IMG/VR virus record: IMGVR_UViG_3300045988_100207
DNA length: 64,000 nucleotides
From: a virus
Reading direction: 5' to 3' (one strand)
In this document: positions 5,624 to 55,421 of the stretch, piece after piece
How the letters are laid out: every line of letters begins with the position of its first letter
Position numbering within the stretch: position 1 is the first letter of the stretch
The notes under the pieces: model-generated
Seen by the model: only the letters and a program-made list of their open reading frames with translations
What the model was told of the DNA's origin: nothing
Database searches by the model: none
Position numbers and translations under genes: made by a program

Positions 5624-5995
5624 ATGAAAAGAAATATCAAGTTTAAGGCTAAGAAACTTAATTCATGTGAATGGGTTGAAGGTGATTTAGTGCATATTGG
5701 AAATAGGGTATGCATAGGTGGAGACCACCTAAAAGATGGAATAACAGACGTTGACCCTTCTACCGTCTGCCAATTCACAGGGCTAAAAGACTGCAAAGGC
5801 AATGAAATTTGGGAAGGCGATATGATAAAAAGCCCACATCTTGGAAACGTAGCCATAGTAGAATGGGATGATTCTTTATGCGGTTTTAAATGTGTAGATG
5901 ATACTGGACGTATTAATTATTCTCTTAGAGCTATCGTTGAAAGCTCTGGGTGGTCTTTTATTGTCAATAAGTTTGATAGGAGAAGTAGCGTATGA
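5624..5995 (+). CDS. yopX: YopX-family protein
   Basis: KFKAK...W(V)EGDL...VCQFTGLKDCKGNEIWEGD matches the YopX signature (TxxQxTGLKDxxGxxIYEGD). Confidence 0.75.
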   Translation: MKRNIKFKAKKLNSCEWVEGDLVHIGNRVCIGGDHLKDGITDVDPSTVCQFTGLKDCKGNEIWEGDMIKSPHLGNVAIVEWDDSLCGFKCVDDTGRINYSLRAIVESSGWSFIVNKFDRRSSV

Positions 5996-6321
5996 AGATT
6001 AGATTGGCTAAGAAGATTTTGAAAATAATGAGAAGAAGTACGGATGCACGTTACTTCGATTCAGAATGTTCAATTAAGGAAGATAGTAGATTCTTACCTA
6101 GATTAAAGTATCTCTATAAGAAAGCGACTATCAGATGGAATAAAGCAAATTGGCCAAGTGTTAACGAAAGTTTGTTTCGTGCAATTTTGAGAAATTCAAA
6201 GGAGTGTGGTCGTTGTAAGCATTATAAAGGTAATGAGTTTATCGGCAGATGTATCAAACTTCATAATGATGTTGAAAGCAGCGACTGGTGTAGTGGAACA
6301 TTTTTTGTTAAAAATAAGTAG
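5992..6321 (+). CDS. small basic protein, MKxRLAKK family, Cys-rich C terminus
   Basis: 109 aa; ATGA overlap with yopX; N terminus MKIRLAKKIL shared with 62222, 63364 and 63512 ORFs; CGRCKH...C...C. Confidence 0.55.
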   Translation: MKIRLAKKILKIMRRSTDARYFDSECSIKEDSRFLPRLKYLYKKATIRWNKANWPSVNESLFRAILRNSKECGRCKHYKGNEFIGRCIKLHNDVESSDWCSGTFFVKNK

Positions 6322-7664: not shown

Positions 7665-8108
7665 CTATATCTCTTTGTATTCAACTTTAGCTTCAAAGCA
7701 AGGGCACTCCTTGATTCTCTCCCAAGGATCCACTACGCCATTATGGTTCTTGTCGGGCGAAATATCCCTGTGCCCTAAGATTTCAGCATACGGATATTTC
7801 TTCTTCAGCTGAGTGAGCAGAGTGATAAGTGATTTCTTCTGTTCCTCAGTTCTGTTGTCTACCGCCTTTCCCTTCTTGTTGATGCCGCCAACGTAAGCCA
7901 CATTGATAGCCGTAGCATTATATCCCTTCACACCGTTGCTAACCATTTCTACCGGAAGCATCTGGTGAATCCCACCATCAGCAGTAATCACGTAATGATA
8001 CCCTGGGTTATTCCAGCCTTTGCGCTTAAACTCGTCCCAAAGTTCCTTCACGCCCCATTTCTGAGAAGAGGCAGTACAATGAACAAAAATTCTCTTGATC
8101 AGTCTCAT
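7665..8108 (-). CDS. N-acetylmuramoyl-L-alanine amidase endolysin (Amidase_2 / T7-lysozyme-like)
   Basis: FVHCTA...GYHYVITADG...NATAINVAYVGG...LGHRDI...CPCF: Zn ligands His/His/Cys in canonical order. Confidence 0.85.
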   Translation of the reverse strand: MRLIKRIFVHCTASSQKWGVKELWDEFKRKGWNNPGYHYVITADGGIHQMLPVEMVSNGVKGYNATAINVAYVGGINKKGKAVDNRTEEQKKSLITLLTQLKKKYPYAEILGHRDISPDKNHNGVVDPWERIKECPCFEAKVEYKEI

Positions 8109-8548
8109 TTCTTCTCCTCCTTTCCCTGCTCCTTCATAATCTCAGCAAAAGCCCTAGCCAAGTCTTCTTTGTTCTCCAGAAGAATGCTTACTGTCTTCTC
8201 CTGCTTCCGTATCTCAGCCTTCTGCCAGCTCTTCTCTCTTACGCTTACAAATTCACAGAACACGCAATAGCCTGCCCATATCATAGAGAAGACAGGGAAG
8301 GGGAGAACCGTACAGGCTATCAGGTCTATGCAGACCGTCACCATGAAGGGAGAGAAGTATTTCCTCGCCTTGTCGCAAGTCTTCTTGAATCCTGTACTTG
8401 TCGTAGCCAGTCCGTTCTCTTTCGCTTTCTTGATGCCGAAGAACAGGTCCACGCCCATAGAAATAATAAGAGCACCCATGCAGATGGCAATAACCAATGC
8501 CGATCTGTACAGGTGCTCTTGTAAAAATGTATGTACTATCTCTGCCAT
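8105..8548 (-). CDS. holin (phi LC3 / holin_4-like)
   Basis: TM helices, DLFFGIKKAKENGLATTSTGFKKT motif, charged C-terminal tail; ATGA overlap with the endolysin. Confidence 0.7.
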   Translation of the reverse strand: MAEIVHTFLQEHLYRSALVIAICMGALIISMGVDLFFGIKKAKENGLATTSTGFKKTCDKARKYFSPFMVTVCIDLIACTVLPFPVFSMIWAGYCVFCEFVSVREKSWQKAEIRKQEKTVSILLENKEDLARAFAEIMKEQGKEEKK

Positions 8549-8574: not shown

Positions 8575-8616
8575 CAAAGATAAAAGGCTTTTCAATAGCT
8601 TTTGCCGTGTTCCAAC
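8575..8616 (-). promoter_or_regulatory. late promoter (lysis cassette): GTTGGAACACGGCAAAA-N17-TATCTTTG
   Basis: Element at 8600-8616 (complement), -7 box at 8575-8582 (complement), 26 nt upstream of the holin ATG. Confidence 0.6.
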
Positions 8617-10159: not shown

Positions 10160-10601
10160 CATCATCTGCCTCGTTCTGTGTACTTGGCACGTCGGTTTCT
10201 ATCCCGGTTGCCCTTGGCAGAATCATATCCTGTATAGCTTCTTCCATGTCAACGGCTTTCATCTTGCCGTAAACCTTCTGGTGCTTTGGCAGATAAAGAA
10301 CGATATGAAACCAGTCACTTCTCTGGCTGTTGCCTCTGTCGCTAGTCTGCTGCCCATGTATGTTAGTCAGCCTACAATGGGGCTTTCCGGTTTCCTATTC
10401 GCTTCATTCGGTTTGATGTGGGGTAGGACAGGACGATGGAAAGAGGCATTAAAGAAAGCGATGCCGTTCATTATTTGCACAATGGCCGTGCCGAATGTCA
10501 ACGGACTTCTGCATCTTTGGTGCTTTTTTTTAGGTTATTGTTGCTCATTCTTATGGATTAAAATTATATATATATGGAAAAGGAAATATGGAAACCAATA
10601 A
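10095..10601 (+). CDS. rhomboid-family intramembrane serine protease (minimal 6-TM core)
   Basis: FHVNGFHLAVNLL (H-x4-H-x3-N as in GlpG TM2), GLSGFLFASFG (GxSG, TM4), NGLLHLWCFFLGY (TM6 His); six hydrophobic segments; start set at ATG 10095 (MEKITEKW). Confidence 0.65.
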   Translation: MEKITEKWTFVRRNFRTKLVLSIICLVLCTWHVGFYPGCPWQNHILYSFFHVNGFHLAVNLLVLWQIKNDMKPVTSLAVASVASLLPMYVSQPTMGLSGFLFASFGLMWGRTGRWKEALKKAMPFIICTMAVPNVNGLLHLWCFFLGYCCSFLWIKIIYIWKRKYGNQ

Positions 10602-11179
10602 AAGGATACGAAGGGCTTTACGATGTAAGCAATTTTGGCAGAGTCAAAATGCTAAAAAGAGTAACAGCTTTTGGTTGTTCCACAAAAATTTATCCAGAAG
10701 TGATAAAGAAGCAGTCTGATGATGGAGTTGGGTACAAGACAGTTACATTATCAAAGAACGGAAAGAGTAAAACGTATCGGGTTCACAGACTTGTAGCTGA
10801 AGCTTTCATTCCAAATCCAGAGAATAAACCACAAGTATCACATCTAGATGAGTCAAAAGATAATAATAAAGTAACTAATTTGCGTTGGGCGACTTGCAAA
10901 GAAAATATAAATATGCCGCTTCATAGAATTAGGGCTTCAATAAGCCACTCTGGAGAAAGATGTTGTAGATTTGGGAAGCGAGGCTATTTAAGCACAAATG
11001 GGAAAATTGTTATTCAATTAGATAAGAATGGTAATTTTATTGCAGAATTTGGCAGCCAACTAGAAGCAGCTAGAAGTGTTGGCTCTAAAGACTCTAGCGG
11101 TATTTCTGCTTGTTGCTTAGGAAAACAAGAAACTGCATACGGATTTAAATGGAAATATAAAGAAGAATCATGTTTTTAA
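10574..11179 (+). CDS. HNH homing endonuclease (NUMOD4 + HNH_3 + C-terminal NUMOD/IENR-like HTH)
   Basis: WKPIKGYEGLYDVSNFGRV; VHRLVAEAFIPNPENKPQVSHLDESKDNNKVTNLRWATCKEN; C-terminal FGSQLEAARSVG...AYGFKWKY. Confidence 0.85.
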   Translation: MEKEIWKPIKGYEGLYDVSNFGRVKMLKRVTAFGCSTKIYPEVIKKQSDDGVGYKTVTLSKNGKSKTYRVHRLVAEAFIPNPENKPQVSHLDESKDNNKVTNLRWATCKENINMPLHRIRASISHSGERCCRFGKRGYLSTNGKIVIQLDKNGNFIAEFGSQLEAARSVGSKDSSGISACCLGKQETAYGFKWKYKEESCF

Positions 11180-11202
11180 AAATGTATTTCATAACTCATT
11201 TT

Positions 11203-11237
11203 AAAGGCGACCACTCGTGATGAGCAGCCGCCTTTTT
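11203..11237. terminator. bidirectional hairpin between convergent genes
   Basis: AAAGGCG (11203-11209) pairs with CGCCTTT (11229-11235), T-run after it; lies between 11179(+) and 11270(-). Confidence 0.5.
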
Positions 11238-11269
11238 CATGTTATCATAAATTAGCGCGTATGAAAGAA

Positions 11270-14035
11270 TTATCTCATTTTGTCTTCTCGTCTGCTTTGT
11301 ACCTCCACTATACTGCCAGCAAAGGCATCAGCAGCCTTGAAGTTCTGCAGCGTATACTTGAAAGTAAAGTATTTCCAAGGCTTACCAGCCAAGCTTGGCA
11401 GCTTGCACCAGTGCTTGCAGTCGTTGCTTCCGTATATCTCCAGCCCAATCGTTCCTTCGTCCGAATCAAACAGATGCTTCACCGCTCTCAGCGATTTCAA
11501 CGTCATGCTGCCGCCCATCTTCAAAGGTCTGGTAGTAAATGATCCGCTATAGCTTTCCGTATCTTCGTTGATGTCTGGCTTTGCTGTAAGTGAATATACG
11601 TTTCCGTTAGTATCTTGTATCAGATTATCCGGATAGTCATTCACTACTGCCTGTGCCTCTATGCCGCTATTCACCATTGAGAAGGTCTTATCCACCATAT
11701 TATATATGTATTGGTATGATTTCCCTTTGCTGAATATTCTCAATATGGAGTCTCTGTAATCGTAGGCGATAAAGCAGTCTTTCAGAAAATCTAGGAACTT
11801 GCCTTCCCCGAAGGTTGCAAAGTTCCTCGGCGCTCTTCCCCTCATCTGTTCGCTCATGCAGGCTACGCTTCCACCGCTTGCCGCCATCAGTCCTTTCTTT
11901 GAAGCAAAGAACACAAGCCTGTCCGTCGGCACCAGTGGCGAATCCTCATTACATACCTCTCTTGATATTGGATAGGCTCTGCTATAGAGTCCTTCTGAGT
12001 TAACCGACAAGCCGTAGATACCTTCATCCGTAAATACCATCAATGGATATTGACCAAACTGACCTTGGCTTACCGCCTCCGTGTTGGCAATAATTCCGAG
12101 TATCTTTCCGGTTCCAACCGTATTATCTCCCGATGCCTCAAATACAAATGGGTTGTTGACTACTGATGTAAAAATCTGAGAGTTCAAATTTTCTTTATCG
12201 TTTACGCTTGTTACAATCTTTTGCAATTCGCTTTCACTGATTTCCGCAAATTCCTGTGGCTTATTTGGTGGAAGTACAGGAAATGTATAAGCGCCATTTA
12301 ATCTAGGGTGTTCCTTTAGACTAACTCTGATATATTTGCCTCCAGAGCTAAAAATAACCTCCGTAGCATTCGGGTCTGGGTAAAACAGCCATCCTTGCAG
12401 AAAATCTTCATCGGCAGTAGCACTTCTTACAGCCCATGTATCGCATTTATCTGAAACGATGTGTGTAAGCATAAGAAATGCGTCATCCTTAGAAGACCCG
12501 TCTTTTCCTACAAATTTGGCGAAACCAGCAAAAGGAGTTCGTGTTGCTCCAATAAGATTCAGTCTGCCATTATAATTGTATATAGATTCGGCACTCAAAG
12601 ATGCCCATCCGTAGTAATCGTCCACTTTCAGCTGCTCTTGCTCTTGAAGATTTTCCAAGGTTCCTTCACTAATAAATGCCGGTTCTCCACCCTGACCTGT
12701 AACTGTATAATGAAAATTATATCCACCCATATAACTTGCATTGATTGGAACGGTGAATAATTTGTAAAAAACTGTTTTTGTGAGTAATTCGGATATAATC
12801 TGATCATCACTCTTGTATTTTGGTAAAAGTTCGTCTTGTACCGCTCTGGTATATGAGGTGTATGTACCCGTAAAGCCACCCACGTCGTAATTAAATAGCT
12901 TTTCATCGTAAGTTTTATAGCCGAAATTAGCATAAGCATATTTCTTGTGCAATCCATTCGGACTTTCAAAATGCCAACCTTTATCTATATAGAATGGAAC
13001 TACTTGGTCTGACGCAAAAACTACAATCTCCTTGATGATGTCGCTCCAGTCACTGGATATTGATTCAAACCTGAATAGCAATTCTCTATATTCTATAAAA
13101 TAGAACATGTTTCCTAAACCCATCTGATGTAAATCCATATAGGAGTTGTGTGTACTATCAAATACAGCACCACTAAACATGCAGTTTTTATTTACAGTAG
13201 GGTAGCAGACTATTGGCGTGGTTATTCTGCAGTATGAACCATCAAACATGCGGAAAGCGCATCTTAGAAAGAATGGAAAAGCAAACATATTCTTGCTCTT
13301 TGCCCAGTTTATCGCTTGCGCTACATGTCCTTGGATGGTTTCTTGAAACTCTTTTTCATATCTAGAGTCTGGCGCCCCGTCCTTAACGCTGAATGTAGTA
13401 TACGATCTGGTTTCGCTACCATCGGGTTTTACTCCTCCTGCCTGAATAAATGTATGATTTAATGGGTTAAAGTAACTCTCTCCTTTACCACCATTCGATT
13501 CTACAGCATTCTCGGCATTACATAATGTTCTTCCGCTTTCTTCTTGGGTGTAGTTTTGTATCGGTCGCTCAAAAGTAAAATCGTAATCTAAACGAGGCAA
13601 ATCTTTACCCAGATTCTTGTATTTGTTTCCTTTGAAAAGCAAATAGTGAAGCCCTTCGCTGGTTGCACAAACCAAAGTATTGCCAATACTTTTTACATCA
13701 TAAACGGTTCCTACATTGAAACTTTTCGTTACTCCATCGGGTGGGCTTACGATATTTCCACTATCATCTTTGGTATACCAGTATATATTTTCCGTACCAT
13801 CATACGCAATGATATTCTCATAGTCTGCCATCTTGTGAACGTACATTATCTTATAAGGAACGTTGCCAATACTCACCCCATTCTGCACCGCCTTCATTTC
13901 TCCATCCTTAAAGATAAATCCGTCACTCTCCAGCAGTTCTGAATCATCTGAAAGCAAGTCGCTAGGCACATTCGTCATGCCCTTGCTAAAGCTCAAAGTT
14001 TGTCTTTCTAAGTTTCTTTCCATAAAATTTAACAC
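11270..14035 (-). CDS. large virion structural protein (tail/adaptor candidate)
   Basis: 921-aa ORF directly downstream of terL in the late operon; beta-rich composition; no catalytic motif recognised. Confidence 0.55.
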   Translation of the reverse strand: MLNFMERNLERQTLSFSKGMTNVPSDLLSDDSELLESDGFIFKDGEMKAVQNGVSIGNVPYKIMYVHKMADYENIIAYDGTENIYWYTKDDSGNIVSPPDGVTKSFNVGTVYDVKSIGNTLVCATSEGLHYLLFKGNKYKNLGKDLPRLDYDFTFERPIQNYTQEESGRTLCNAENAVESNGGKGESYFNPLNHTFIQAGGVKPDGSETRSYTTFSVKDGAPDSRYEKEFQETIQGHVAQAINWAKSKNMFAFPFFLRCAFRMFDGSYCRITTPIVCYPTVNKNCMFSGAVFDSTHNSYMDLHQMGLGNMFYFIEYRELLFRFESISSDWSDIIKEIVVFASDQVVPFYIDKGWHFESPNGLHKKYAYANFGYKTYDEKLFNYDVGGFTGTYTSYTRAVQDELLPKYKSDDQIISELLTKTVFYKLFTVPINASYMGGYNFHYTVTGQGGEPAFISEGTLENLQEQEQLKVDDYYGWASLSAESIYNYNGRLNLIGATRTPFAGFAKFVGKDGSSKDDAFLMLTHIVSDKCDTWAVRSATADEDFLQGWLFYPDPNATEVIFSSGGKYIRVSLKEHPRLNGAYTFPVLPPNKPQEFAEISESELQKIVTSVNDKENLNSQIFTSVVNNPFVFEASGDNTVGTGKILGIIANTEAVSQGQFGQYPLMVFTDEGIYGLSVNSEGLYSRAYPISREVCNEDSPLVPTDRLVFFASKKGLMAASGGSVACMSEQMRGRAPRNFATFGEGKFLDFLKDCFIAYDYRDSILRIFSKGKSYQYIYNMVDKTFSMVNSGIEAQAVVNDYPDNLIQDTNGNVYSLTAKPDINEDTESYSGSFTTRPLKMGGSMTLKSLRAVKHLFDSDEGTIGLEIYGSNDCKHWCKLPSLAGKPWKYFTFKYTLQNFKAADAFAGSIVEVQSRREDKMR

Positions 14036-18037: not shown

Positions 18038-18524
18038 TGATTATTTCGCCTGTCATGTCTGCCAGACTCTTGTTGCTGCTTGCCGGTGGGGTCTTGTGAT
18101 AAATCAGCTTGATGGCCGCCGCTATATGGTTCACCATGTCCGCAGCATACTTCTGTGCCAGCTCTGCCTCAGTCATTCCCAATACCGCATTCGATACATA
18201 GGCTATCACATACCCCATGAAGTTGCCTTCAAACGGAACGGTAATACTGTCTTCTCCGTCTGCCCATCTGCTGTTTTCAAACTTAATCACCATCGCGTCC
18301 CCGTTCTTGTAATAGGTTACTTGTGGTGCCAGTTCTGCTACAAATGTTTCTGCCGCAGCGTTGATATACTGCTTCATGATACCTTTCTCTTCCGAAGAAG
18401 ATAGGGTAGTCTTGGCAAACATCGTATCTCCGTTCTTGTCTTTCAGGCGTTTTCCGATGAGAGCGAAGTGTTTGTTCACCTCACTCATCACCTTCTCCAT
18501 TTCTATAGTTATCTGTACTTCCAT
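18030..18524 (-). CDS. hypothetical virion-module protein
   Basis: 164-aa ORF immediately downstream of the portal-like gene. Confidence 0.45.
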   Translation of the reverse strand: MEVQITIEMEKVMSEVNKHFALIGKRLKDKNGDTMFAKTTLSSSEEKGIMKQYINAAAETFVAELAPQVTYYKNGDAMVIKFENSRWADGEDSITVPFEGNFMGYVIAYVSNAVLGMTEAELAQKYAADMVNHIAAAIKLIYHKTPPASSNKSLADMTGEIIID

Positions 18525-18527
18525 ACC

Positions 18528-20561
18528 TTATGCTACTCTGTTATATCCTAATGCACTCTGTGCCTGTGCTACTGCATTCTGGTCTGCACCCTGCACAATT
18601 CCGTTCTCTACCTGACCACCGCCTTGCTGCATAGCCATTGCCTGTTGCTGCTGATACATCTGTTCAAGCTGAGCCTGCTGCTCCTGTACGCTGGCAAGCA
18701 ACTTGTCTGCAAATGGTGCGTTGAGATTCTGCAGATACTGAATGATATTGATACCGCCCATTTCAAGAAGCTTGTCGAGCGTATCGTTTTGCATCGTGTT
18801 GAAGGCTGCCGTAGCTGCTGCATTCTTGATACTGATCTTGAAGTGAATATCTCTTGCCGAAAAACGGTCGTACTTGTAAACCGTATTGAAGTTCCGGTCG
18901 TAAACCCTTCTTCCGTCTTCGTAGTACTGCTGTATAGTCATGCACTTCTTGGTTGCCAGCTTCTCCGTGAACACGTCCATGTCGGCAAGGATGGTATACA
19001 GAGACGTGGTTGCATTCTGGCTTTCCTGTGCATATCTGGCTGCCGAAGTTCCTGCCGATGGGGTCTTACCCTGCAAAGCACCGCTCACGTTGGTAACCTC
19101 TCGAATCAGGTTCAGTTCTATCTGCAAGAGTTCATTGGTACCAATATTCACGGCATTCGATGTAATAATTTCTGGCTTCACATTCGGTGTCTTCACCGAT
19201 GGCTTGTAGAATATCCATCCGTCATACTCTACCGCCTCTTCCATAAACTGCTCTGGCGTTCTGCCGTTAAGCACATTCGTAGGAATCATCTTGAATCCCT
19301 TGAAACTGCTTCTGATGGCCATGTCGTTCATTACAATCAGTCGGTTGATGTATCGCTGCTGGTCTATGATGTTGGCAAGGAATGGATGAATCTCTCCGTT
19401 GATATACGGATAGAGTTTCATCGTGAAAGGATGGCTCTTATAATCGTATGGTGTTTCGCCCTGGCAGAGGATAGTTCCGTCTGGCGCCATGTAGGTATAA
19501 TACCAGTACTTATCTGCAATCTCTTCGCTAGTGATGTACGCTCTGTCTTCTTCCGCTATACCCATTTCGTCATACTGCTGCTTGCGCTTCATATTGTCGT
19601 TGCGCAGCTTCTGTATCATCGCAGTATCATCCAAATCTATGCGGAAGTAAGCACCGGTTCCTGTGGTCGCAATCGGGTCAAAGCATTGCAGTCTTGGCTT
19701 GGTTTCCGTGGTCCACACCTCAATCACTCTAGAGTAATGTCTTCCCTTGTTGCTATGGTCAAAACTGAGATTCTCCAACGCCTTCTCTTCGTTAAACTCA
19801 TAGCCGTAGCTGTTATCGTCCGAAGGATAAATATCAAAGATGGCGTTCAGATCTTCTTCTGTAAGCCCATATTCCTGTTTGGAAAACTTCTGATACAAGT
19901 CTTCTCGGCTCACGTCATGCAGCACACCGATAAGGCTCACGTCGTTGTGTCGTGGGTCGCTACCGCATTCAAAAAACATGTGGTCGGGTTCCATCGCGTC
20001 TGTCCATGAGTCGGGCATTTCAAGTTCCTTCGCCTCCCAACTCTCCCTGACAAACATCTGACCGCCCATCAGGTAGTCTTTAATGGCGTGGTTTAGCACA
20101 TCTTGCATGTACGTTGTCTGCCAGTTGCATTGCATCGTGGCACTCATCATGTCGCTCAGTTGTCGGGAGTCGCTGTCTCTTGCAAAGCAGACAGGTTCCG
20201 TTCCCTGCTTGGCATAAAGACCGGCAATAGATTCCAGAATGCTCACCATGATGTTGTTGCTCATAGGTGTCTGGTTGCGCTTCTCCATATAGGTACGCTC
20301 CGTCATTTCCTCCCAGTAGCCATGATGGTATACTCTGATGGTGTCGCTCCATTGGTCGCCCATACAGTAGCGCATCGTTCTCGCCCTCGTTTCTCGCACA
20401 CCGCTCAGGTTATTCCAAGCATTTCTGCATCGGCTGAGTAACTCCTCGTCCTTGCCGTGTTCTTGTCTTCGCTTGCGAGCCTTAACCGAGTCATACTTGT
20501 TATGTTGAGGCATCACTTTGCTAAGTGTCAGTATTCTTGCCTTTACCATTTTCTTATACAT
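18528..20561 (-). CDS. portal protein (putative)
   Basis: 677 aa, first gene of the late operon that contains terL; Q-rich C-terminal tail; assignment by size and position, no search possible. Confidence 0.55.
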   Translation of the reverse strand: MYKKMVKARILTLSKVMPQHNKYDSVKARKRRQEHGKDEELLSRCRNAWNNLSGVRETRARTMRYCMGDQWSDTIRVYHHGYWEEMTERTYMEKRNQTPMSNNIMVSILESIAGLYAKQGTEPVCFARDSDSRQLSDMMSATMQCNWQTTYMQDVLNHAIKDYLMGGQMFVRESWEAKELEMPDSWTDAMEPDHMFFECGSDPRHNDVSLIGVLHDVSREDLYQKFSKQEYGLTEEDLNAIFDIYPSDDNSYGYEFNEEKALENLSFDHSNKGRHYSRVIEVWTTETKPRLQCFDPIATTGTGAYFRIDLDDTAMIQKLRNDNMKRKQQYDEMGIAEEDRAYITSEEIADKYWYYTYMAPDGTILCQGETPYDYKSHPFTMKLYPYINGEIHPFLANIIDQQRYINRLIVMNDMAIRSSFKGFKMIPTNVLNGRTPEQFMEEAVEYDGWIFYKPSVKTPNVKPEIITSNAVNIGTNELLQIELNLIREVTNVSGALQGKTPSAGTSAARYAQESQNATTSLYTILADMDVFTEKLATKKCMTIQQYYEDGRRVYDRNFNTVYKYDRFSARDIHFKISIKNAAATAAFNTMQNDTLDKLLEMGGINIIQYLQNLNAPFADKLLASVQEQQAQLEQMYQQQQAMAMQQGGGQVENGIVQGADQNAVAQAQSALGYNRVA

Positions 20562-20576
20562 TATTAATTATAGGCG

Positions 20577-20618
20577 CAAAAATAGGCAAAAACATGGCTT
20601 TCTTTGCCGTGTTCCAAC
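20577..20618 (-). promoter_or_regulatory. late promoter (portal-terL operon): GTTGGAACACGGCAAAG-N17-TATTTTTG
   Basis: Element at 20602-20618 (complement), -7 box at 20577-20584 (complement), ATG at 20561. Confidence 0.6.
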
Positions 20619-20635
20619 CAACCGCCAAGCGCAAG

Positions 20636-20677
20636 GTTGGAGCACGGCAAAACTTCTTCAAATTATTTGCATTTTTG
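20636..20677 (+). promoter_or_regulatory. late promoter (scaffold-capsid-fibre operon): GTTGGAGCACGGCAAAA-N17-CATTTTTG
   Basis: Element at 20636-20652, -7-like box at 20670-20677, ATG at 20708. Confidence 0.55.
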
Positions 20678-28508: not shown

Positions 28509-28772
28509 TTACTCCTTCTTTGTTAATTCTAAAGCATCAGACTCATATACGCATTCTTGGCAAAAGCATTCTGTTGCAGGGTAGTATTTAAAGGAACTTA
28601 CCTTTTCTATTGTGTACCCATTCTTGATTTTTGAGCAAGAGCTGCTTGTATGGATAACCAGTTGGCGATTGGGAAGATCACGCTCGATAAAAACGTTATC
28701 TCCTAAACTTGTTTTACTGCAGGATATAACAATCGCAGAGATAGCACCTAAAAACAATACTATTCTTTTCAT
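28509..28772 (-). CDS. small lipoprotein with His/Cys motif
   Basis: Signal plus lipobox (AIVISC); IHTSSSC...CFCQEC (H-x4-C...C-x2-C). Confidence 0.55.
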   Translation of the reverse strand: MKRIVLFLGAISAIVISCSKTSLGDNVFIERDLPNRQLVIHTSSSCSKIKNGYTIEKVSSFKYYPATECFCQECVYESDALELTKKE

Positions 28773-28838
28773 ATCAACCCAATATTGCCATCAGTATCGT
28801 GAATAAGAAGATAAAGAGCACGAACCATTCCTGTTTAC

Positions 28839-29582
28839 TCATTTGATTATATTGAAAGCGTCCAACATATTATCAATATTTTCATCCTTTACGAAAAGAC
28901 TTCCCATGTTTTGAGAAATTGTAATCGTAATAGAAGAATCGTTCTGACTTGCAAATTTGTGATAAATCCACCTTCGTATGTCGTTAGCCGTAGCTACTAT
29001 ATATTTATTACGATCACCTCTAGCAACAATAACATAGAAGCAATTACCACCATTGTACCTATCGAAACTTTTACTGCTTATACGAACAGAAAAGTTACCG
29101 TCAGAAGTAATCTGGATGGTTTTCACTTGAATATAAAAAGTCTTGTTATTCTTCATTGCTACAATATCAATACCATCATCAACAGGCATCCTTGCAACAT
29201 TGTATTCTCTAAAAAGAAGCTCGCTACAAACAGCCATTTCTCCGGCAGTACCTGCAAACATTCTGTTTTCCGTAGCTTTTACCTTTGGCTCTAATGGCTT
29301 TATTGCAGGTTTGGGCTTGCGTTCTTTCTTAGGCTTACGAAGTTTGTAATAACCTTTTTTGTTACCACCTCTTCCATTTTTAACACGTTCGTAAATAGAA
29401 TCCTTTTTCTTTGTATCATTTGCCAGATAGCGTGAAACCTGATTCTTTAATTCATCCGCATTTGAGTTTTTAAACTCCTCGTACTTATATACCAATTCTA
29501 GTGCAATATCTGTTACGCTCATTTCTGGGTAATCTACACCTTGAATCATAAATACATTATTAACAGCTTCTTTTATATCCAT
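28839..29582 (-). CDS. HARE-HTH + PD-(D/E)xK nuclease-fold protein
   Basis: N-terminal winged-helix ending YERVKNGRGGNKKGYYKLRK; basic linker; C-terminal GEMAVCSELL...PVDDGIDIVAM...FYIQVKT (D...QxK). Confidence 0.6.
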   Translation of the reverse strand: MDIKEAVNNVFMIQGVDYPEMSVTDIALELVYKYEEFKNSNADELKNQVSRYLANDTKKKDSIYERVKNGRGGNKKGYYKLRKPKKERKPKPAIKPLEPKVKATENRMFAGTAGEMAVCSELLFREYNVARMPVDDGIDIVAMKNNKTFYIQVKTIQITSDGNFSVRISSKSFDRYNGGNCFYVIVARGDRNKYIVATANDIRRWIYHKFASQNDSSITITISQNMGSLFVKDENIDNMLDAFNIIK

Positions 29583-29847: not shown

Positions 29848-30846
29848 ATGAGTGAGTCAAAAACTTACGTATTCGGGGAGAACGGAACCAGCCAGGGTGG
29901 TGGTTTCAATAGCATTCTAGCTATGCTCCCAGCACTTATGCAGCGACAGGGTGTAGATCCAAGTTTGTTTGCTCTCTGCAACGGCAAGGGCAATGGAAAC
30001 GGATGGGGTGATGGCTTGTTTGCCATCTTGCTTCTCTTCCTTCTTATGGGTAGAGGTAACTTCTTCGGTGGAAATAATGGCGGTTGCTTGATGCCTAACG
30101 GACAGGGTGGCGTTATGCTCAATAACGATGCCAATACGGCTGTTATCATGCAGGCAGTTCAGCGCAATGGTTACGATGTTCAGTCGCTTGCTACTGCTCT
30201 CAACACTACTACCGGTAACGTTATCGCTGCCATCAACGGTGTAAGCAAGGAGATTTGCGGTGTCGGCAACCAGATGGGCATGACTGCTAATCAGGTATTG
30301 ACCGCCATCATGCAGGGTAACAACGCTATCGCTACTCAGTTGGCAGAATGCTGCTGCAAGACCAACAACAACATTACCGCCATGGACGGCAATATCAAGT
30401 TGGCGATGTGCCAGCAGACTGGTACCTTACAGAATGCCATCAATAATGTGGCAGTAGGTCAGGAGCGTGGCTTCTCTAACGTAGCTTACGAAACCCAGCG
30501 CCAGACTTGCGATTTGCATAACGCCATCAAGGAAAGCACTCAGACCATCGTTGACGGTCAGAAGCAGGCTGAGATGCGCGAAATGCAGAATAAGATTGAT
30601 TCTCTGCGTGAGGAGAACAGTACCTTCAAGGCTTCCGCAATGACTTCACAAATCGTGGGTCAGGCTGTAGCACCTATCAATCAAGTATTGGCTGGTCTGC
30701 AGAACGAGGTAGCTGGTATCAAGTGTAAGCTGCCGGAGACAGTAACCACCCCTTACAGCCCATTTACTGCGGTTCCTAACTGCGTGGCCTATCAAGCAGG
30801 TTTGTATGGTTTGAATGCTGCCAACAATGCAGGATTCTGGGGTTAA
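29848..30846 (+). CDS. hypothetical membrane-associated protein
   Basis: 332 aa; Gly/Asn-rich N terminus, one TM (LFAILLLFLLMG), Q/N/A-rich helical region with several Cys (CCC). Confidence 0.55.
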   Translation: MSESKTYVFGENGTSQGGGFNSILAMLPALMQRQGVDPSLFALCNGKGNGNGWGDGLFAILLLFLLMGRGNFFGGNNGGCLMPNGQGGVMLNNDANTAVIMQAVQRNGYDVQSLATALNTTTGNVIAAINGVSKEICGVGNQMGMTANQVLTAIMQGNNAIATQLAECCCKTNNNITAMDGNIKLAMCQQTGTLQNAINNVAVGQERGFSNVAYETQRQTCDLHNAIKESTQTIVDGQKQAEMREMQNKIDSLREENSTFKASAMTSQIVGQAVAPINQVLAGLQNEVAGIKCKLPETVTTPYSPFTAVPNCVAYQAGLYGLNAANNAGFWG

Positions 30847-30861
30847 AGAAAGGAGGCTGCT

Positions 30862-31206
30862 ATGTTATGGTTAAGACCTTATACATGGGTGAATCGTAAC
30901 GGTTCGGCGGCTATCGCTTCTACTGGCGTGAAGGTGAATACTGCCGATGTGGTGTTCACCTTTAAAAACCACGCCTTCGTGAATGCCAGCTACAGAGGAA
31001 CGATTTTCGTTAATCTGCGTCAGGCTATTCCGACTGGAACGACTGGTACGCTGCCTATCCTTTTCGAGACCAACGGAGCAACCCAAGCTGTAACCAAATT
31101 CAATGGTGATGCTTTGACGGTTGCAGACGTGCCGGGAACTGGAGTGGTTCAGCTCTGGTTTGAGAGAGACACTAACACCCTTCAGCTAATGACGGGTATT
31201 GTTTAA
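30862..31206 (+). CDS. hypothetical beta-rich protein
   Basis: 114 aa; AGGAGG at 30851-30856 upstream of the ATG. Confidence 0.5.
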   Translation: MLWLRPYTWVNRNGSAAIASTGVKVNTADVVFTFKNHAFVNASYRGTIFVNLRQAIPTGTTGTLPILFETNGATQAVTKFNGDALTVADVPGTGVVQLWFERDTNTLQLMTGIV

Positions 31207-31236
31207 CAAACAGAATAGATAATAGGAGATTACATT

Positions 31237-31737
31237 ATGTTTCAAGGTTTAAGAACAAATTCTTTATTCTATGTCCTAGATAAGGGCGAAAACCCGAACT
31301 TGCAGATTGGTCAGGTTGTTTCGGTCAGCAATCCTCAGACAAAATACCCTACCTTCAATAATGGCTTCACGCCTCAGCCTATGGAAACTGTGGTTGATGT
31401 GAAGGTGAAGCTGAACGACGAGGAGGTGGATTTCAAGCAGCTACCTGCCAACGGACAGATAGCGAACGACAAGAATCTCGTTGTGAGCGACAACAAGGAA
31501 GCCATGAGTGCAGAGGTCGATACCATGCTGAGACAATCCAAGGCGATACTGGAGAGCGTAGATTACCACAAGAAAGTTGTAGATTCTTGTGAGGGAATGC
31601 TATTGCAACTCAACCCCCAGATAGCCAAGGAGAGGGAGCAGACTGAGAAGATCAGCAAGCTGGAAGGCAAGGTTTCTGGCATGGAGGGCAAGCTCGACAA
31701 GATGATGGGATTGCTCCAACAGGCGATAAACAAGTAA
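31237..31737 (+). CDS. hypothetical protein with C-terminal coiled coil
   Basis: 166-aa ORF. Confidence 0.5.
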   Translation: MFQGLRTNSLFYVLDKGENPNLQIGQVVSVSNPQTKYPTFNNGFTPQPMETVVDVKVKLNDEEVDFKQLPANGQIANDKNLVVSDNKEAMSAEVDTMLRQSKAILESVDYHKKVVDSCEGMLLQLNPQIAKEREQTEKISKLEGKVSGMEGKLDKMMGLLQQAINK

Positions 31738-31771
31738 TCTCCTATCTATTCACTTTAAAAATCTTAGAATT

Positions 31772-32047
31772 ATGATAATGGTTGAGATTACAGAAGACAA
31801 GTTTGATGGCTTGTATGAGAACGTGGAGAAGGGTTTGCGCTACTTGGATAAGGCGATGAACTGCCTAGGCGAAATGAAGCGTGAAGGCAGACGTGACCGA
31901 TATGGCGAGCGCAACCGCATGCCCGATTACAGAGGTCGTGGAGGCAGAAGTGGTATGCGAGAGCATGAAGAGTACGAAGACATGCGCCAACGTGACGACA
32001 GAGACCGTGGAGAACGTGATTATCGAAGCTACGGCGACGAGTATTAA
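31772..32047 (+). CDS. Arg/Asp/Glu/Gly-rich low-complexity protein
   Basis: 91 aa; C-terminal half RRDRYGERNRMPDYRGRGGRSGMREHEEYEDMRQRDDRDRGERDYRSYGDEY. Confidence 0.5.
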   Translation: MIMVEITEDKFDGLYENVEKGLRYLDKAMNCLGEMKREGRRDRYGERNRMPDYRGRGGRSGMREHEEYEDMRQRDDRDRGERDYRSYGDEY

Positions 32048-32054
32048 CTAACTT

Positions 32055-32096
32055 GGGGTTTGGTAGTGAAACAGATTTCGTTACCAAACCCTTTTT
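32055..32096 (+). terminator. rho-independent terminator
   Basis: GGGTTTGGTA (32056-32065) pairs with TACCAAACCC (32082-32091), followed by TTTTT. Confidence 0.7.
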
Positions 32097-32111
32097 AATA
32101 TCAGAAAGATT

Positions 32112-32525
32112 ATGGAAAGAAAATACAGACAATCTTTGAACGCCTACGATTATCAGCCGGAGGAAATGAGGGCTTACCTTCGCTACAATGGTTGGCACTT
32201 CAATAAGAAAATGTGTGAGTGGGCAGTAAAGCAGATGCGGAAGAACGGTAAGCCTATCCGCATGATGAGCAAGGATGATATTGAGGAAATCTTGAAAAAG
32301 AACAACATCGTGCTGGAGAATAATGTGGGCTATGATGCGGTTTACATCGCACACATGTGTCTGGCAGACTTCTACGGCTCGTCTATCACGGAAGAAAAGC
32401 AGATGGCCCAGTTCATCAAAGACTACGTAGATGATGAGGATCAGCAGGACGGTTTCATCTTCAACCGCTTCTATGCAGATACATCTTTCAATGGCATAGG
32501 CATACCTTGGGAAGAGATATTGTAG
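32112..32525 (+). CDS. hypothetical protein
   Basis: 137-aa ORF. Confidence 0.55.
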   Translation: MERKYRQSLNAYDYQPEEMRAYLRYNGWHFNKKMCEWAVKQMRKNGKPIRMMSKDDIEEILKKNNIVLENNVGYDAVYIAHMCLADFYGSSITEEKQMAQFIKDYVDDEDQQDGFIFNRFYADTSFNGIGIPWEEIL

Positions 32526-32530
32526 TTGAT

Positions 32531-32558
32531 AGTTTAAAGTTTAAAGTTTATAGTTTTG
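32531..32558. repeat. heptamer tandem repeat (AGTTTAA)x2, AGTTTAT, AGTTTTG
   Basis: Read directly; lies in the gap between 32525 and the next ORF. Confidence 0.7.
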
Positions 32559-32942
32559 ACTGAGCAGGAGATATATTTGGAAAGGTATGACTGGACGGTA
32601 CATGTAATGTACGATGTCCACTCAAAGGATGCCATGAAGGTAAGAAGGCATCTTCGGGATTTGGGATGCGCCGGCATTCCTCTCGAAGATGCCTGTAATC
32701 TCGTGCTCGAAGGTCAGCCCAACAAAGGGATAACCTATTCCAATATAGGCACCAGAAAAACGATAGTAGTAATAGGTTGGACCACCTCAAAAGGGGAGTA
32801 CACGAATAGCCTAACCCACGAAATGCTCCATGTAGTTCAGCACATATCCGAACAGTTCCTTATAAATATGTACACCGAAGAACCCTGCTATCTTCTAGGT
32901 TCCCTCTGTCAAGCCGCCGCCAGCAAGAAAAGCCCCCTCTAG
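32556..32942 (+). CDS. small HExxH protein (putative zinc metallopeptidase)
   Basis: LTHEMLHVVQH motif; track start is TTG, true start uncertain. Confidence 0.45.
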   Translation: MTEQEIYLERYDWTVHVMYDVHSKDAMKVRRHLRDLGCAGIPLEDACNLVLEGQPNKGITYSNIGTRKTIVVIGWTTSKGEYTNSLTHEMLHVVQHISEQFLINMYTEEPCYLLGSLCQAAASKKSPL

Positions 32943-33011: not shown

Positions 33012-36000
33012 TTATTCCAATCTATCCAGTTCATCCACCGCATCCATCATGATTCTGTCAATATTCTGATTAGCGAAGTTGATGCTCTCGGTATCAGAAG
33101 ACTTATCTCTGAGTTTCTTCCAGCGCTTCATCTGTTTCTCTGCCAACTCGATGATTCTAACCTTGGCAGCCTCCTTGGAGTTTTGGAAGTGGAAATACTC
33201 ACCTATATTCGTGATTCTCTTATCAATCGGAACGTTCTTCGATTTCAGGCGGTCCACGTTGGCCATGGTCTTTTCCATTTCGTCCTTGTAGTTATACCAC
33301 TTGCTCTTGGTTCGCTGCAAGCTGCTCTGCTCATTTGGCGTATAGAGTAGTGAGCGAAGGAAAGGAATATCCTTGGTTTCCGTGTCGCTTCCGTGCTTAA
33401 TAACACCGATAGCACGCTCAGTAAAGGTAGCCGCACCACCACCTATGCCACCGATGTAGTGATTCAGCATACTAGGGTTTGTTACCATATCCAGGAAACT
33501 ATTACCCAGCATATCTTCATTACCCTTGGCTACATCGTTAGTCTGAGCATTCACCCATTTATTCACAGCCATATATCCGTCAGGCACACCCCTGTAGGCT
33601 CTCTGCCAAGCAGGGGAATTTTCATTCCAGTCACCACGTCTTTCAATCGGCGCACCCTTCCAGTCGGTATTTAGCTCCCATTCCACGAAAGGAGATAGGG
33701 CAGAAGGAGAGATAGCTTTGATCGTCTCATTCAATGGCTCCTTGCCAGCCGAAGAGTTACCGAGATAGTCCATCACCGGCACAAGCTGCGACATACAGCC
33801 CACGGCATCCAAGGCAGGATTCTTCTGTCCGCTTACGTTTGGCGAGAAGGTCAAGCCAGCCGCCAAGTCACCCAAACCATAGAAGGCTCTCAACTCGATG
33901 GCAAGCGGAATAGTAATAAACTGTCCGCCACCTTTATATATACAGAGATTGTTTCTTCTCACGTAGTCAGGCAACTCGCCGTATGGGTCCTTCACACCCT
34001 TTCTGTCCTTCTCGTCCTCACTCGCAATCAGCACATTGTTACCTAGTGCAGCCAACGCACCGAGAGCAAAAGGAATGGCAAGCATATTGATAGAAGTACC
34101 CACAGGATGATTCTTCAAGTTCTTCACAAGAAGATTTGTACTCTGAATACCGGCATTGAAGAACATAGAACAATGTCTCAGATAGCTAGCCGTAAATCCG
34201 TAAGTCCATCTTGCAGCCGCCTTGCCGCCAGTCATTTCTCCGTTCTTGAAACTCTTGATGGCATCACCGCTACCATGGCGGTTGAAGTTGGTAGATACCT
34301 CCTTCGCATCATAGACCGAACGGATGATAGAGCGGTTACTGTCTCGGCTCGCACAATAGGTAGCAAATCGGGCGATATTCTCAGCCACCTCGTTGATGTT
34401 CGCCAGATTTCCGAAGAAGAAGTCACGAAGGACAGCACCGCCCTTGTCAATCTTGCTTCTTTCGCCCTTCACATCTTTTTTGTATTCCTTGGTCCAATCC
34501 TGCATGTTCTTGATCTGAACCCAACCGGTTTCGCCGCCGTTCTCCATGAACTCCTTGAAATATCGCTGAACCTTGTCGCTCATATCAAGTGTTCCGTTAC
34601 GATACTTGGCAAATAAGCCCAAGCCAGTAGTTCCGCTCAAATCCTTGAAGCTGATATTCGATGCACCCTTATACAAGCCCAACTGCGCATAGTACTTCGC
34701 CCATAGCGCACCATATCTTGCACCCTCCTTGGAAGTAACGTTGCTCGATGCAAACTCCGCATCACGCATGATGTTTCGCATCACGAACTCAGGGTTATAA
34801 GATGTACACAACTGCGCCATCATTCTTGAAATAGAACTCAATGGTTTCATGATTCCCTTGGCACCCGAGTTCTCCAGCAATCCATTCAGAGCCTGCGCCG
34901 CTCTAGGATTTCCGTTGATAATAAAGGTATGGGTCCTTCCGGCAATCTTCACATCTACGATATGCTGCGATTTATTCTCCGCTCTTTGGAACTTATAACC
35001 AATCTTGTCTCTGCGATAAACCTTGTATGCCATACCCTGTGATTCCTTCATCTTCATATCCTTATTGAAGTCTGAAACAATCTGGTTGATTTCGTCGGCC
35101 GTAGCATCCTCAGGAATATCAGGGTAGCGCTCATAGACGATGTTCACCACTGGGTCCTTCTCATACCAGACGCTTGTTTCGGTAATCAGATTATTGCCCG
35201 AATTGTTTCTCGCGAATCTTGCAAATGCCTGACGGATAGCATTCATACCACCGTTCTTGATGGCTCTGTTACCCATCGCACCAATCTGCGCCAGTACGTT
35301 AGTTTCACTCAGATACTTGTGTCCTCTCGCTCTCATAATCGTGCTTCCGATGTAACTCTTCGGGTCACCCTGCTCAGTAATGTATCCATAAGTATCTTCT
35401 GCCGTAGCCTCATCATACTTTCTCAAAGGCACATACCAGTTGAACATATTCGATACATGACCATGCAATTCCTTGCTGATGATGCCATTCTTGTAGTCGC
35501 TGTCAATAGAATACTGGGTAGCAGCCTTCACCTTATCCCAATAGTCCTTTACAGCTCCCTTCTTGATGCTCTCCATCTTCGCTTCCGAATCCATCACGCT
35601 CTGAATAGCCTCGGCATCATTGTAAGGGTCAGAAGATTTCGTCACCTCCTGTATAGCGTGCATACCAGAATAGTCATGCTCGCCAGCCTCGAAGTCTGCA
35701 TCAAAGTGATTTCTGATACTCTCGTCCAACTGTCTGTAGTACTCCTTCAGGTCGATGTTGCCAGCCTTCAACTCGTTGTCAAGATACTCCTTATCGCTAT
35801 AATAACTGTTTTCCAAGAAGTCGGCATCCTGCTTTTTCTGCTCGTCCATCCTCATATTTCTAAGGAAATCACGCACAAAGAACTCTCTGTTTCGCTCCAA
35901 ACCATGCTTGGTAATCATGTAGAGATTGAAGTTGCGAATCTTCTCATCATCCTTCTTTCCGTCGAAAGCATCCAGCACATCGGCCATGGCCTTGTCAAGA

Positions 36001-39000
36001 GGCTTCATCACGTTGCGCTCAAACATCTGAGCCGCATCACTCATCGCGCCCTGCATGGTGTTCTGCAGTATATAAGGATTCTCCGAAGAGGCAATATCCT
36101 CAATCTTCTTGTCTGGCACAATCGCATTCATCAACTTCTTCAACGAAAGCATATTGTCCATATAGCTCTCTGTGAACATATAGCCGTGCTCGTCAAGTGA
36201 ACGGTGGTATCTGTCAAGTGCCGTGCCGGCAGATGGGGTAGTACGGAAGTGAATCTCACCATCTGTAGCCTCATTCCACTCAGCCTTGGTAAGATTATCC
36301 ATACTTCTAACCTTTCCGTCATTTCCGTAGAACATGCCATCATGCGCCACGACAGCAGGCATACGCTCATGGTCGAGACGGTATTTCACCGCCTCGGCTC
36401 TCATCTTCCAATAAGGATCATCCGGATTCTTCTGCAAGTTCTTGCTCAACCAGAGCAAGTACTTCACATCTTTAGTATTAGGAGCAACACGATAACCGAT
36501 TTCGTGAAGGAAATCAGATACCTTGTTTTTGATACCATTCCAGAAGCCCGGTTCACCCTTGCCATCCTCGGCGAGTCGGGCGATACCTTCCTCAATGGCA
36601 TCATAGATATTCAGAGGATTGAACTTTCTCTCCTCATCCACCAGCTTCTTCAAAGCCGCATTCTCAGGCTTATCCAAGTCGTACCATACTTCACGAAGGA
36701 ACTTGTCGAATCGTTCATCACCAAACAACTCGCTCATTCCCTTGTGTCCAACCACCTCATGCCAGATGGTCTTCTCGGCAGTATATCTATCGTGGATATT
36801 AGGCATGTAAAGATGCACCTCGCCAGTCTTCTCGTCATACCAGCCAGTAATCTTTCTACCTTCCTCAATAGCAGCCTTAGCCGCCTTGTTGGTGATTTCA
36901 TCAACCGATGAAACCATGTTCACCTTTGCACCAGTCTTCTGAACCACCTTTTCGATATGGCTCTCAACAGATGAAGTGGGGTAGTTGCCATCGCCGTGGT
37001 CCGTGCGGAACTTGATGCCGCCATCCTTGCCCCATACATTGAAGGCATCCTTTGTCATTTTCACGTTGACGAACTTAGCCTGAGGGAACTCCTGTTCCAG
37101 TTCAGCCATCTGCTTCAAGAACTTCTCCTTTGTTTCAGGGTTCTGTCTGCCTTGCTCTACGGTAGTGATAGGCACACCAAGTTTTACAAGCTCTCTCAAC
37201 TGGTTAGGGGTAACTACGTTCCAAGGGATAGCCAATCCTGTTCCTCTCAGTTGGTCGGCGATTTTCTCAGCAACCTCCTCGTCAGGCAATATTCTTACTG
37301 CCTTTCTCCATCTAGAGAGCATCACGCTTCTCTGTCTGTCCTTTGGCAGGAGGCTGTTTACTGTTCCAGAAGTCCAAGGCACCAAGCCCACAGAGTTCTT
37401 CGCGCCCTCGGCGTGATAGCCGCTAGTCTTCTCGCTCTCAGGAATCTCCCATTCCACAACCTTGATATTGCCTCTAGCGTAAGCGCCAGAGAACTGATCG
37501 TTCATCACCGAAGTGGAAGTGTGCATATAAGGGTTATAAGCCGCTGGTACTGGTCCTTCTCCTGCCCCAGGGTTCTTGTCGGTCTTTACAAGTTGGAACT
37601 TACCGTTCTTCACAAGGTCAGGTCGCTCGTCTGCGCCCATCCAAGCACCAATCTCTGTAGCATCAGTACGCTTTCCGTCAATGATAGCAGCCATAGGGGA
37701 GTAGAGCTTACCGTCCACCTCCTGCATTCCGCTATACATTCTGAAAGTCTTCTCCTTGTTGAGGCGGTCCAGTTCATCCTTGTCGGTAACTCTGTAGGCA
37801 TAGCCGTTTTCCTCAATGTCATTCATGGCAATATCATCAATCTTTTCATTGAAATCATCCATGATGTCATTGAGAGCCTTATCCATCTTGCTTTTATCCG
37901 AAATCTCAAAGAGTTTATGCCAAGCGTTCTTTACAGCTTGCCACAAGGAGTTATCGCCTCGGTTGCGCAATTCGTTAACTGCGTTCATGATTCGCTCACC
38001 TAAAGAAAGGCCAAGTATCTTTCTCTGCTTTCCACCTGCCATTTCAGCAGCAAATTCATACTCATCCTTACCACCATAGTTACGTCTCTTTCCTTCCTCC
38101 CAAACAATTCTACCATCAGCCTTAACCTTATTGTAAATATCAATAACAGTCTTTACAGCTTCAATCTGCTTAGGAGTAAGCATACCTTCTGCCTTTCCGT
38201 CCTTTACAAGGTGGATGGCACCCATAGTAGCCTGATGAATTAACTCATGCAGAATGGTATGAGCCGCCTCTTTAGGGTTTGTGTATGTTCTAGAAAGAGT
38301 ATCAATAAAGAGATTAATGTTTCTTTCTGGTGTAGCTTCACCAACATTGCCTCTCTCGTCACCCTCGTCCATGCCACCAAACTCAACTCCGAGTCGCTTG
38401 GCTATATCGCGCGCCTTCTCAAAGAGTCTTCTTGTGCCTTCTTCTTTTGCTTGATTTGTCGCCTCAAAGAGTCTAGATATATCTGCAAAAGAGGCTTTAG
38501 CTCCTCTTCGCAATCCATAGCCATCTGCGAGAGCTTTGGCTCGAACTTCTCGATAGTCCATTTCTCTCCTTGCGGCAGTTTTGGCAGCTTCAAGTTCAGC
38601 TCTTTTAAGTTGCACAAGATGCGTTCTACCTGCTTTCTCTCGGTTTCCAAAAGTTCGTCCCCAGAATCTAACTTCATCTTCTAGTCCATTTAAAGTGTAA
38701 GTAATTTCAGAAGCCTTGTATCTAGAAAATTCTGAGGTATAATAGTCAAGATGTCTGTTAAACTCGGCTTTATCCTCATTCGACAAGTCCTTAGTCAACT
38801 CGTCAACTCTATCATCAAACTTCTTTTCAATCTGCGAAGATACATTTTTATCTACATCTTCCGGAATGATTCTACTATTCTTAACATCTTTTGTATCTGT
38901 TTTAGAATACTGGAAGCCTCGGTCCTCACGGAAGTGGGTGCCTTCATCCTCAGAAGTATTGCGCTCCTCCTGTACCTTCACGCCCATTTTAGACAGACGG

Positions 39001-55326: not shown

Positions 55327-55421
55327 GATTTTGTGGGTTTTTCGTAGATTTCATGGTTTTGTGCAAGATAATGCGCTCATCTAGGATTAAGGCTTTTTGA
55401 AGATGATTTAGGCGGTTTTTA

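Follow-up and report, generated by a model that had tools for sequence, protein, structure and literature searches.

A co-varying promoter element and a candidate late-gene activator in temperate phages of Segatella

Control of late genes by a phage-encoded activator whose site replaces the -35 box is a classical kind of system. The late promoters of phage Mu, four in number and dispersed (Plys, PI, PP and Pmom), lack a usable -35 but have a good downstream element. In phage T4 the middle activator MotA acts at a box whose centre lies at -30 and depends on AsiA, which remodels sigma region 4. Papers that bear on the late activator C and the middle activator Mor of Mu include PMC4461284 and PMC12867686. 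The arrangement described here, in which a 17-nt element stands a fixed distance upstream of a host-type -7 box at four operons of a Segatella phage, would resemble that of Mu C in having an activator drawn from the preceding temporal class, a site over the -35 position and a host holoenzyme of the sigma-A type. It differs in that Mor and C are dimeric helix-turn-helix proteins that act on a dyad, whereas the Segatella phage site is asymmetric and directional; in that the candidate reader of this site, a protein of 138 aa, has no detectable similarity to Mor/C and is instead ribbon-helix-helix-like with an Arg/Gly arm; and in that the host belongs to the Bacteroidota, with their -33/-7 promoters. 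The likeness to T4 MotA lies in a phage box that takes the place of the -35 while the host -10 is kept, that is, in a hybrid host/phage promoter; the fold, however, is unrelated, and no AsiA-like partner has been identified in the Segatella phage.

In temperate phages, P2 Ogr and P4 Delta, and the RinA, ArpU and Ltr families of Gram-positive phages, are likewise small phage proteins without which packaging, morphogenesis and lysis genes are not turned on (PMC3152322, PMC3753634). What they share with the system proposed here is that they are small, phage-encoded activators of late operons that belong to lineage-specific families, but they have zinc-finger or sigma-like folds and usually act on one late operon or from a site near -55. 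In searches of Pfam, PHROG and PDB sequences the 138-aa protein matched none of the Mor/C, MotA, Ogr and RinA families. We know of no Ogr-, RinA-, ArpU- or Ltr-type late activator described for Bacteroidota phages, and late-gene control in these phages is, to our knowledge, essentially unknown, especially in those of Segatella (Prevotella) copri, a species that ranks with the most abundant bacteria of the human gut and does not lend itself easily to genetic manipulation. Our search of the literature likewise found no description of the element, of the protein family or of late promoters in Bacteroidota phages. What is new here is the protein family, the phylum and a set of co-evolving, probably orthogonal specificity types.

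Composite promoters at four late-function operons

The window, by which we mean the whole 64,000-nt stretch that was analysed (IMG/VR record IMGVR_UViG_3300045988_100207), represents about 85% of a genome, related IMG/VR contigs reaching up to about 75.6 kb. Its gene content includes a portal protein (phrog_156), a terminase, scaffold-like and capsid-like proteins and an amidase (phrog_822), and the roughly 12 kb that are absent from it, read in a close relative, encode an integrase, a CI-like HTH protein, NinG, dUTPase, RNase H and HNH. Prophage copies were found at four or more loci in species-representative genomes of Segatella copri and Candidatus Segatella violae, and copies were also seen adjoining bacterial genes; the prophage of S. 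copri strain F3-48 is of type B. On the strength of this gene content, of the integrase and CI-like HTH genes of the relative and of the prophage copies in Segatella, the phage is a temperate Segatella (Prevotella) phage that is obliged to use the host RNA polymerase. Megablast gave no close match to the window among cultured phages, and the nearest isolates are the Bacteroides temperate phages BS-TP4, BKO1-TP3 and BF1-TP2 (portal identity 31-36%), which lack a homologue of the 138-aa protein and show no obvious common element. Rfam and tRNA scans of the window were empty. One 44-kb contig (CAAGQJ010000014.1), with 96% identity over the candidate gene, has been assigned to a 'Bacilli bacterium' MAG; since the other genomic matches are to Segatella, it is almost certainly a mis-binned phage contig.

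The element, GTTGGARCACGGCAAAR, has exactly four exact matches in the window, and at each of the four it is separated by a spacer of exactly 17 nt from a Bacteroidota-type -7 box, which in turn lies 26 to 30 nt from the ATG; the spacer sequences are unrelated. The promoter of the lysis cassette (8575-8616, - strand) consists of the element GTTGGAACACGGCAAAA at 8600-8616, the N17 spacer and the -7 box TATCTTTG at 8575-8582, and it precedes a holin-like gene (8105-8548), the amidase gene (7665-8108, phrog_822) and further downstream genes. The promoter of the portal-terminase operon (20577-20618, - strand; element GTTGGAACACGGCAAAG at 20602-20618, N17, -7 box TATTTTTG at 20577-20584) diverges from that of the scaffold-capsid-fibre operon (20636-20677, + strand; element GTTGGAGCACGGCAAAA at 20636-20652, N17, -7 box CATTTTTG at 20670-20677). 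The fourth promoter (54833-54874, - strand; element GTTGGAACACGGCAAAA at 54858-54874, N17, -7 box TATATTTG at 54833-54840) precedes an operon that ends in the gene for a giant polyvalent protein of 5935 aa. This composite promoter architecture is present at four late-function operons, and the sequence-only reading of the window, which had placed a 17-nt element N17 upstream of the -7 box at these units, proved correct in every detail when the window was scanned and the sites were read. That reading had spoken of all four late transcription units; the four element-bearing operons are confirmed, but the element is absent from the + strand unit at 29848-32942 and the - strand unit at 28509-29582. 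A fifth, weak site at 29630 (-), GTTGATTAACGGTACAA-N17-TACTTTTG, which matches at 11/17 positions, was rejected, as it is not conserved and type-A relatives have unrelated sequence and a canonical TTTG there.

When up to three mismatches are allowed, 0.38 matches are expected in shuffled sequence and none of 100 shuffles reaches five. The sole further match of this kind in the window, at 32776-32792 with three mismatches, is also the only one found inside coding sequence, and it has no -7 box at the right distance. Complete relatives of about 75.6 kb (for example contigs 3300029120_000009 and 2871871566_000003) each carry exactly four exact matches as well, and for this reason the set of four appears to be complete for the genome.

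Three of the -7 boxes (TATCTTTG, TATTTTTG and TATATTTG) fit TAnnTTTG exactly, and CATTTTTG has a single deviation, in that it starts with CA, which is conserved across lineages. The four sites therefore share with the Bacteroidota sigma-A promoter (-33 TTTG / -7 TAnnTTTG) its -7 box and the typical distance to the ATG, and differ from it in carrying the element instead of the -33 TTTG. The sequence-only reading had put the element in the place of the -33 box, and TTTG is indeed missing 15-24 nt upstream of the -7 box at all four late promoters. It is present, at a distance of 20 nt, in both presumed early promoters (9673 and 56439). The latter (56415-56446, + strand; TTTG, 20 nt, TATATTTG) is of the canonical type and would drive the operon at 56.4-62.9 kb. 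The absence from the late promoters of a -33 box that the early promoters possess fits activator dependence; it should be noted that the Bacteroides -33 box is weakly conserved and that a promoter with a -7 box only could work without an activator. The element's constant 3' CAAA complements TTTG, and its position nearly coincides with that of the -33 box. In the window and in relatives, a conserved site at the -35 equivalent, at fixed distance and in fixed orientation, is confined to the element-bearing late operons, which is the pattern expected of class II activator-dependent promoters.

Several further features of these operons were observed. The giant ORF (33012-50819, - strand) encodes a polyvalent protein with ddrB-like ParB, methyltransferase, Strawberry-notch helicase (AAA_34 + Helicase_C_4) and LPD38 domains, and these domains rule out its being a virion RNA polymerase of the crAss-like kind. 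A similar gene, for 5391 aa, adjoins the portal gene in Bacteroides phage BS-TP4. The two genes directly upstream of the giant ORF (52249-53487 and 50837-52255, both - strand) are hypervariable even at 98-99% portal identity, a 412-aa protein encoded there being only 45-66% identical in many phages whose portal proteins are 98-99% identical. Upstream of the giant-operon promoter, about 740 nt (54875-55613) contain no convincing ORF and have no Rfam match, and at the end of this ORF-poor region (54887-54921, - strand) the complementary arms GCGCCCC / GGGGCG are followed by a T-rich stretch. Homing-type HNH genes (NUMOD4 + HNH_3, and HNH) are scattered, at 10574-11179 (+) in the window and at 18059-18676 and 10637-11329 of the related locus L428, one such gene lying between the lysis and packaging modules.

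Concerted variation of the element and the candidate gene

In relatives with 82-89% portal identity, both arms of the divergent portal/scaffold region retain the order element, 17-nt spacer, -7 box. What differs in these phages is the 5' ~12 nt of the element, as in the variants CACGGAAACACGGCAAAG, ATTGGAACACCGCAAAG, TCGTGGTATCGACAAAG, TCGTGTTATGGGCAAAG and GTTAAATAACCGAAAGT, and the two divergent copies within one genome always agree. For the remaining promoters we compared 61 loci that surround the first genes of the giant operon, and 80 that surround the amidase gene. The orthologous giant-operon promoter, with type-specific elements, was read in about 100 related loci, and in type the giant-operon and lysis promoters agreed with the portal region of their own contigs. 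The orthologous lysis site of type B, for instance, reads ACGGAAACACGGAAAAA-N17-TATCTTTG; in several type-B contigs all four promoters carry CGGAAACACGG[C/A]AA, and in type-D contigs TTGGAAYACCGCAAA stands at each of the three promoters that were recovered. An exact scan for the type-B 16-mer matched the divergent pair alone, the remaining two type-B sites having different flanks.

Across types, the N17 spacing, the -7 box and a nearly constant 3' CAAAR are conserved; the 5' ~12 nt fall into at least seven types, and the late promoters of one genome change type together. This concerted change spans sites that are 12 to 46 kb apart, with a fixed distance to an invariant -7 box, and the element therefore looks like the binding site of a lineage-specific trans-acting factor. 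Variation of this kind would be hard to explain by chance, by a recombination scar or by a site for a host factor. We consider it highly probable that the element is the late-promoter site of a phage-encoded factor, and the earlier suggestion of a phage-specific late-promoter signature with a phage-encoded reader gains strong support from the co-variation of its copies genome by genome. The motif scan of the genome and its relatives that had been advised at that stage points the same way, with four copies per genome and an architecture that is retained in relatives.

The sequence-only reading had considered the factor that reads the element not to be identifiable in the window. On this point our analysis departs from it, since a strong candidate lies at 62458-62874 (+ strand), where tblastn placed the gene for the 138-aa protein; it is the final gene of the + strand early operon. 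A hairpin at 62857-62887 (GAAAAAGCAGGGC / GCTCTGCTTTTTC; 13-nt arms, 92% complementary) overlaps the stop codon of this gene and is probably the terminator that closes the operon. A terminal place in the early operon, together with such a hairpin, would suit a delayed switch.

The candidate emerged when the ORFs of the 61 loci were grouped into families and each family was checked for separation by element type; the comparison covered five types and a region of about 20 kb at one promoter. No other gene found in all five types is as strongly associated with type as that for the 138-aa protein: identity of the protein within a type is at least 89.7% and typically about 96%, and between types with different cores it is 34-71%. 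Types B and C, which have the common core GGAAACACGG, are 79% identical in this protein, as compared with 66-67% between A and B/C, 53% between A and D and 34% between A and E. Most neighbouring early genes are mosaic, with alleles that are 90-100% identical between types.

With distant homologues from the protein database added, together with contigs, genomes and two further scans, at least seven specificity types could be compared. The putative DNA-reading strand of the protein is identical in types with a common core and different in others. The motif [Y/H]RVVTHV accompanies the element core TTGGAACACGG, NRVV[L/F]HV accompanies GGAAACACGG, SKVCFRV accompanies TTGGAATACCG, HIITLRV accompanies GGCTACAATGG and RQLNFRV accompanies TCGTGCAATGGG; the later scans contributed NLVFFRA with GTTGGRAKACGA and EIVMFRT with GTTRAATAACMG. 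Site and protein co-vary across these lineages, as would be expected of a cognate factor: none of 133 locus pairs, which are phylogenetically related and include some contigs that were fetched twice, is discordant, and only about six to eight independent specificity switches lie behind the association.

An association of this sort could also arise if the element were an activator site that is read by a different phage protein, such as the basic 60-aa protein encoded at 60463-60645 or the product of an unsampled gene, with the 138-aa protein hitch-hiking along. The 60-aa protein and a lipoprotein (59190-59507), both from conserved early genes, do separate by type, though less sharply, and the association screen was limited to the five types and the ~20 kb described above. 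Nevertheless, we find this reading rather unlikely. Between types A and E the 60-aa protein and the lipoprotein are still 46-57% identical, as against 34% for the 138-aa protein, which is so uniform within each type, is the only one among these with a DNA-binding-like fold, and has a strand that stays the same where the core is common and changes elsewhere. The HTH_26 protein encoded at 55928-56230, next to the giant-operon promoter, was rejected as a candidate, its alleles being up to 99% identical between types and so lacking any type association.

Small paralogous genes are also found in this part of the genome. There are two paralogous pairs, at 5624-6321 and 61842-62392, each consisting of a YopX-domain gene (61842-62225 in the second pair) followed by the gene for a small basic protein that starts MK[AI]RLAKKIL, and further copies of the small protein are encoded at 63146-63512 (-). 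Among the small paralogous 'MKxRLAKK...' ORFs on the - strand (62890-63512) sits a 261-bp segment, 63096-63356, that is inverted in place and 100% identical in a close relative (contig 3300045988_094006, L266), with colinear flanks; no clear inverted repeats flank the inversion.

Fold of the candidate and the sign of its action

The 138-aa protein belongs to no Pfam or PHROG family, and a search of 1.84 billion proteins yielded no more than 54 representative clusters for its own, small family. Its AlphaFold model (mean pLDDT 78.6) predicts a confident N-terminal beta-beta-alpha-beta-beta-beta domain (residues 1-68); a nearly invariant Arg/Gly-rich arm, HPGWGGRRERAGAPSKG, which is disordered in the model; and a C-terminal part in which an extended segment (the putative strand IYRVVTHV) is followed by helices at 103-114 and 116-137, the two-helix part having a pLDDT of about 80. 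The strand is not formed in this monomer model; in ribbon-helix-helix proteins, the strand forms only in the dimer. Together with the model, several sub-threshold sequence matches point to a probable ribbon-helix-helix domain at the C-terminus. RHH_1 matched 8/25 members with a best E of 0.06, below the curated cut-off; CopG-family regulators were the top matches, at a sub-threshold E of 0.19-0.38, when the C-terminal profile was compared with the PDB; and small remote homologues that consist of the arm and the C-terminal domain only matched BrnA (2e-4) and RHH_7 (0.019), again below the curated cut-offs. Foldseek searches of PDB and BFVD gave no significant match for the C-terminal domain, and those obtained for the N-terminal domain alone, to small phage proteins (Dmd-like, TM 0.7-0.79), were not informative. 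When types are compared, identity is lowest in the putative strand and helix A (0.33-0.34) and highest in the arm and helix B (0.56-0.64), a pattern that appears to match the variable 5' part and the constant 3' CAAAR of the site.

A protein of this kind would resemble CopG, Arc, Mnt, omega and AmrZ in its probable beta-alpha-alpha arrangement, in a strand lying in the major groove and in a basic N-terminal arm, and as in those proteins specificity would rest on a few strand residues. The known regulators are, however, mostly repressors that act on repeated or palindromic sites as higher oligomers, whereas the 138-aa protein is proposed to be an activator at a single asymmetric 17-nt site, and it has an additional N-terminal domain of about 70 aa. 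In a more distant phage group (L495-L513 and L517), the homologue is about 235 aa long, with an extension at the C-terminus and without the GWGGRR arm. In this group, for example at 9781-9947 of L507, four tandem repeats of about 43 bp, AAAAGGTACT-N7-AAAGGAGGT, stand before the giant-operon homologue, and there is no single 17-nt element; such repeats may reflect another way in which this protein family binds.

The fold also bears on the direction of control. Ribbon-helix-helix proteins are mostly repressors (P22 Arc and Mnt and the plasmid omega protein act as such at operators), the site overlaps the core promoter region, and a repressor and its operator would co-vary equally well. On these grounds the 138-aa protein, or another phage protein, might repress the late operons from an operator over the -33 region until it is titrated or removed. 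We regard this as unlikely, as the gene closes an operon for lytic growth and is followed by the probable terminator, so that its product would shut the late genes off at the very time at which the phage requires them, with no apparent means of relief; in addition, the missing -33 box at the late promoters fits activator dependence, and separate CI-like and Cro-like HTH genes are present for the control of lysogeny.

The type-A element contains GGAAC, a hallmark of ECF -35 boxes, and this would agree with the sequence-only reading's option of a phage-encoded or phage-remodelled sigma factor, whether ECF-like or arising through sigma appropriation by a co-factor, that reads the element as a -35-like box. 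We found nothing to uphold that option and consider it very unlikely. The host sigma-A -7 box is retained, 26 nt downstream of GGAAC, and no sigma70 region 2 or region 4 domain was detected in the window proteins scanned or in the missing ~12 kb as read in the close relative. The ECF reading of GGAAC was ruled out, given that no conserved ECF-type -10 (CGT-like) follows it by 16-17 nt at the four sites and that GGAAC is present only in some types, being missing from most (TCGTGCAATGGG, GTTAAATAACCG and GGCTACAATGG, for example). Finally, although the copies sit at gene-module borders in a highly mosaic phage group, it is hardly credible that they are module-boundary or recombination sequences, or chance intergenic similarity, with no role as a transcription signal, given four exact 17-mers far beyond chance, a 17-nt distance and an orientation to the -7 box that are exact at every site in every lineage, and the concerted co-variation of copies so far apart.

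A proposed late switch in Segatella phages

We consider it fairly probable that the 138-aa protein is an activator, made from the early operon, that binds the element and recruits the host RNA polymerase to the late promoters; we infer binding, activation and start sites from the sequence comparisons. As the product of the last gene of the early operon, the protein would accumulate as early transcription ends. If transcription starts a few bases beyond the -7 box, the element would span about -46 to -30. The strand of the ribbon-helix-helix domain would read the variable 5' ~12 nt of the element, and the conserved Arg/Gly arm may read the constant CAAAR tract. The bound protein would then recruit or stabilise the host sigma-A holoenzyme at the -7 box, replacing the contact of sigma region 4 with the -33 box in an activation of the class II type. 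In this way the lysis, packaging, head and injected-protein genes would be switched on jointly after a delay, with every phage lineage having its own protein and site specificity. More tentatively, this unnamed ribbon-helix-helix-type protein and its sites could constitute mutually orthogonal activator-promoter pairs, in at least seven types that have been re-set repeatedly through a few strand residues, jointly with all four late promoters of a genome. These might insulate relatives that reside in or infect the same cell, or their parasites, from cross-activation, and would offer a simple, readable protein-to-DNA recognition code in a phylum that is poor in regulatory parts.

If the proposal is true, the switch that commits these temperate phages to particle production and lysis would have been identified, and a new small protein family defined. 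It would also provide natural promoter/activator pairs, probably orthogonal, that work with a -7-box polymerase and could serve directly as gene-circuit parts for Bacteroidales. Four dispersed sites that change together with one protein amount, furthermore, to a clean natural experiment on how the specificity of a regulator and its regulon changes.
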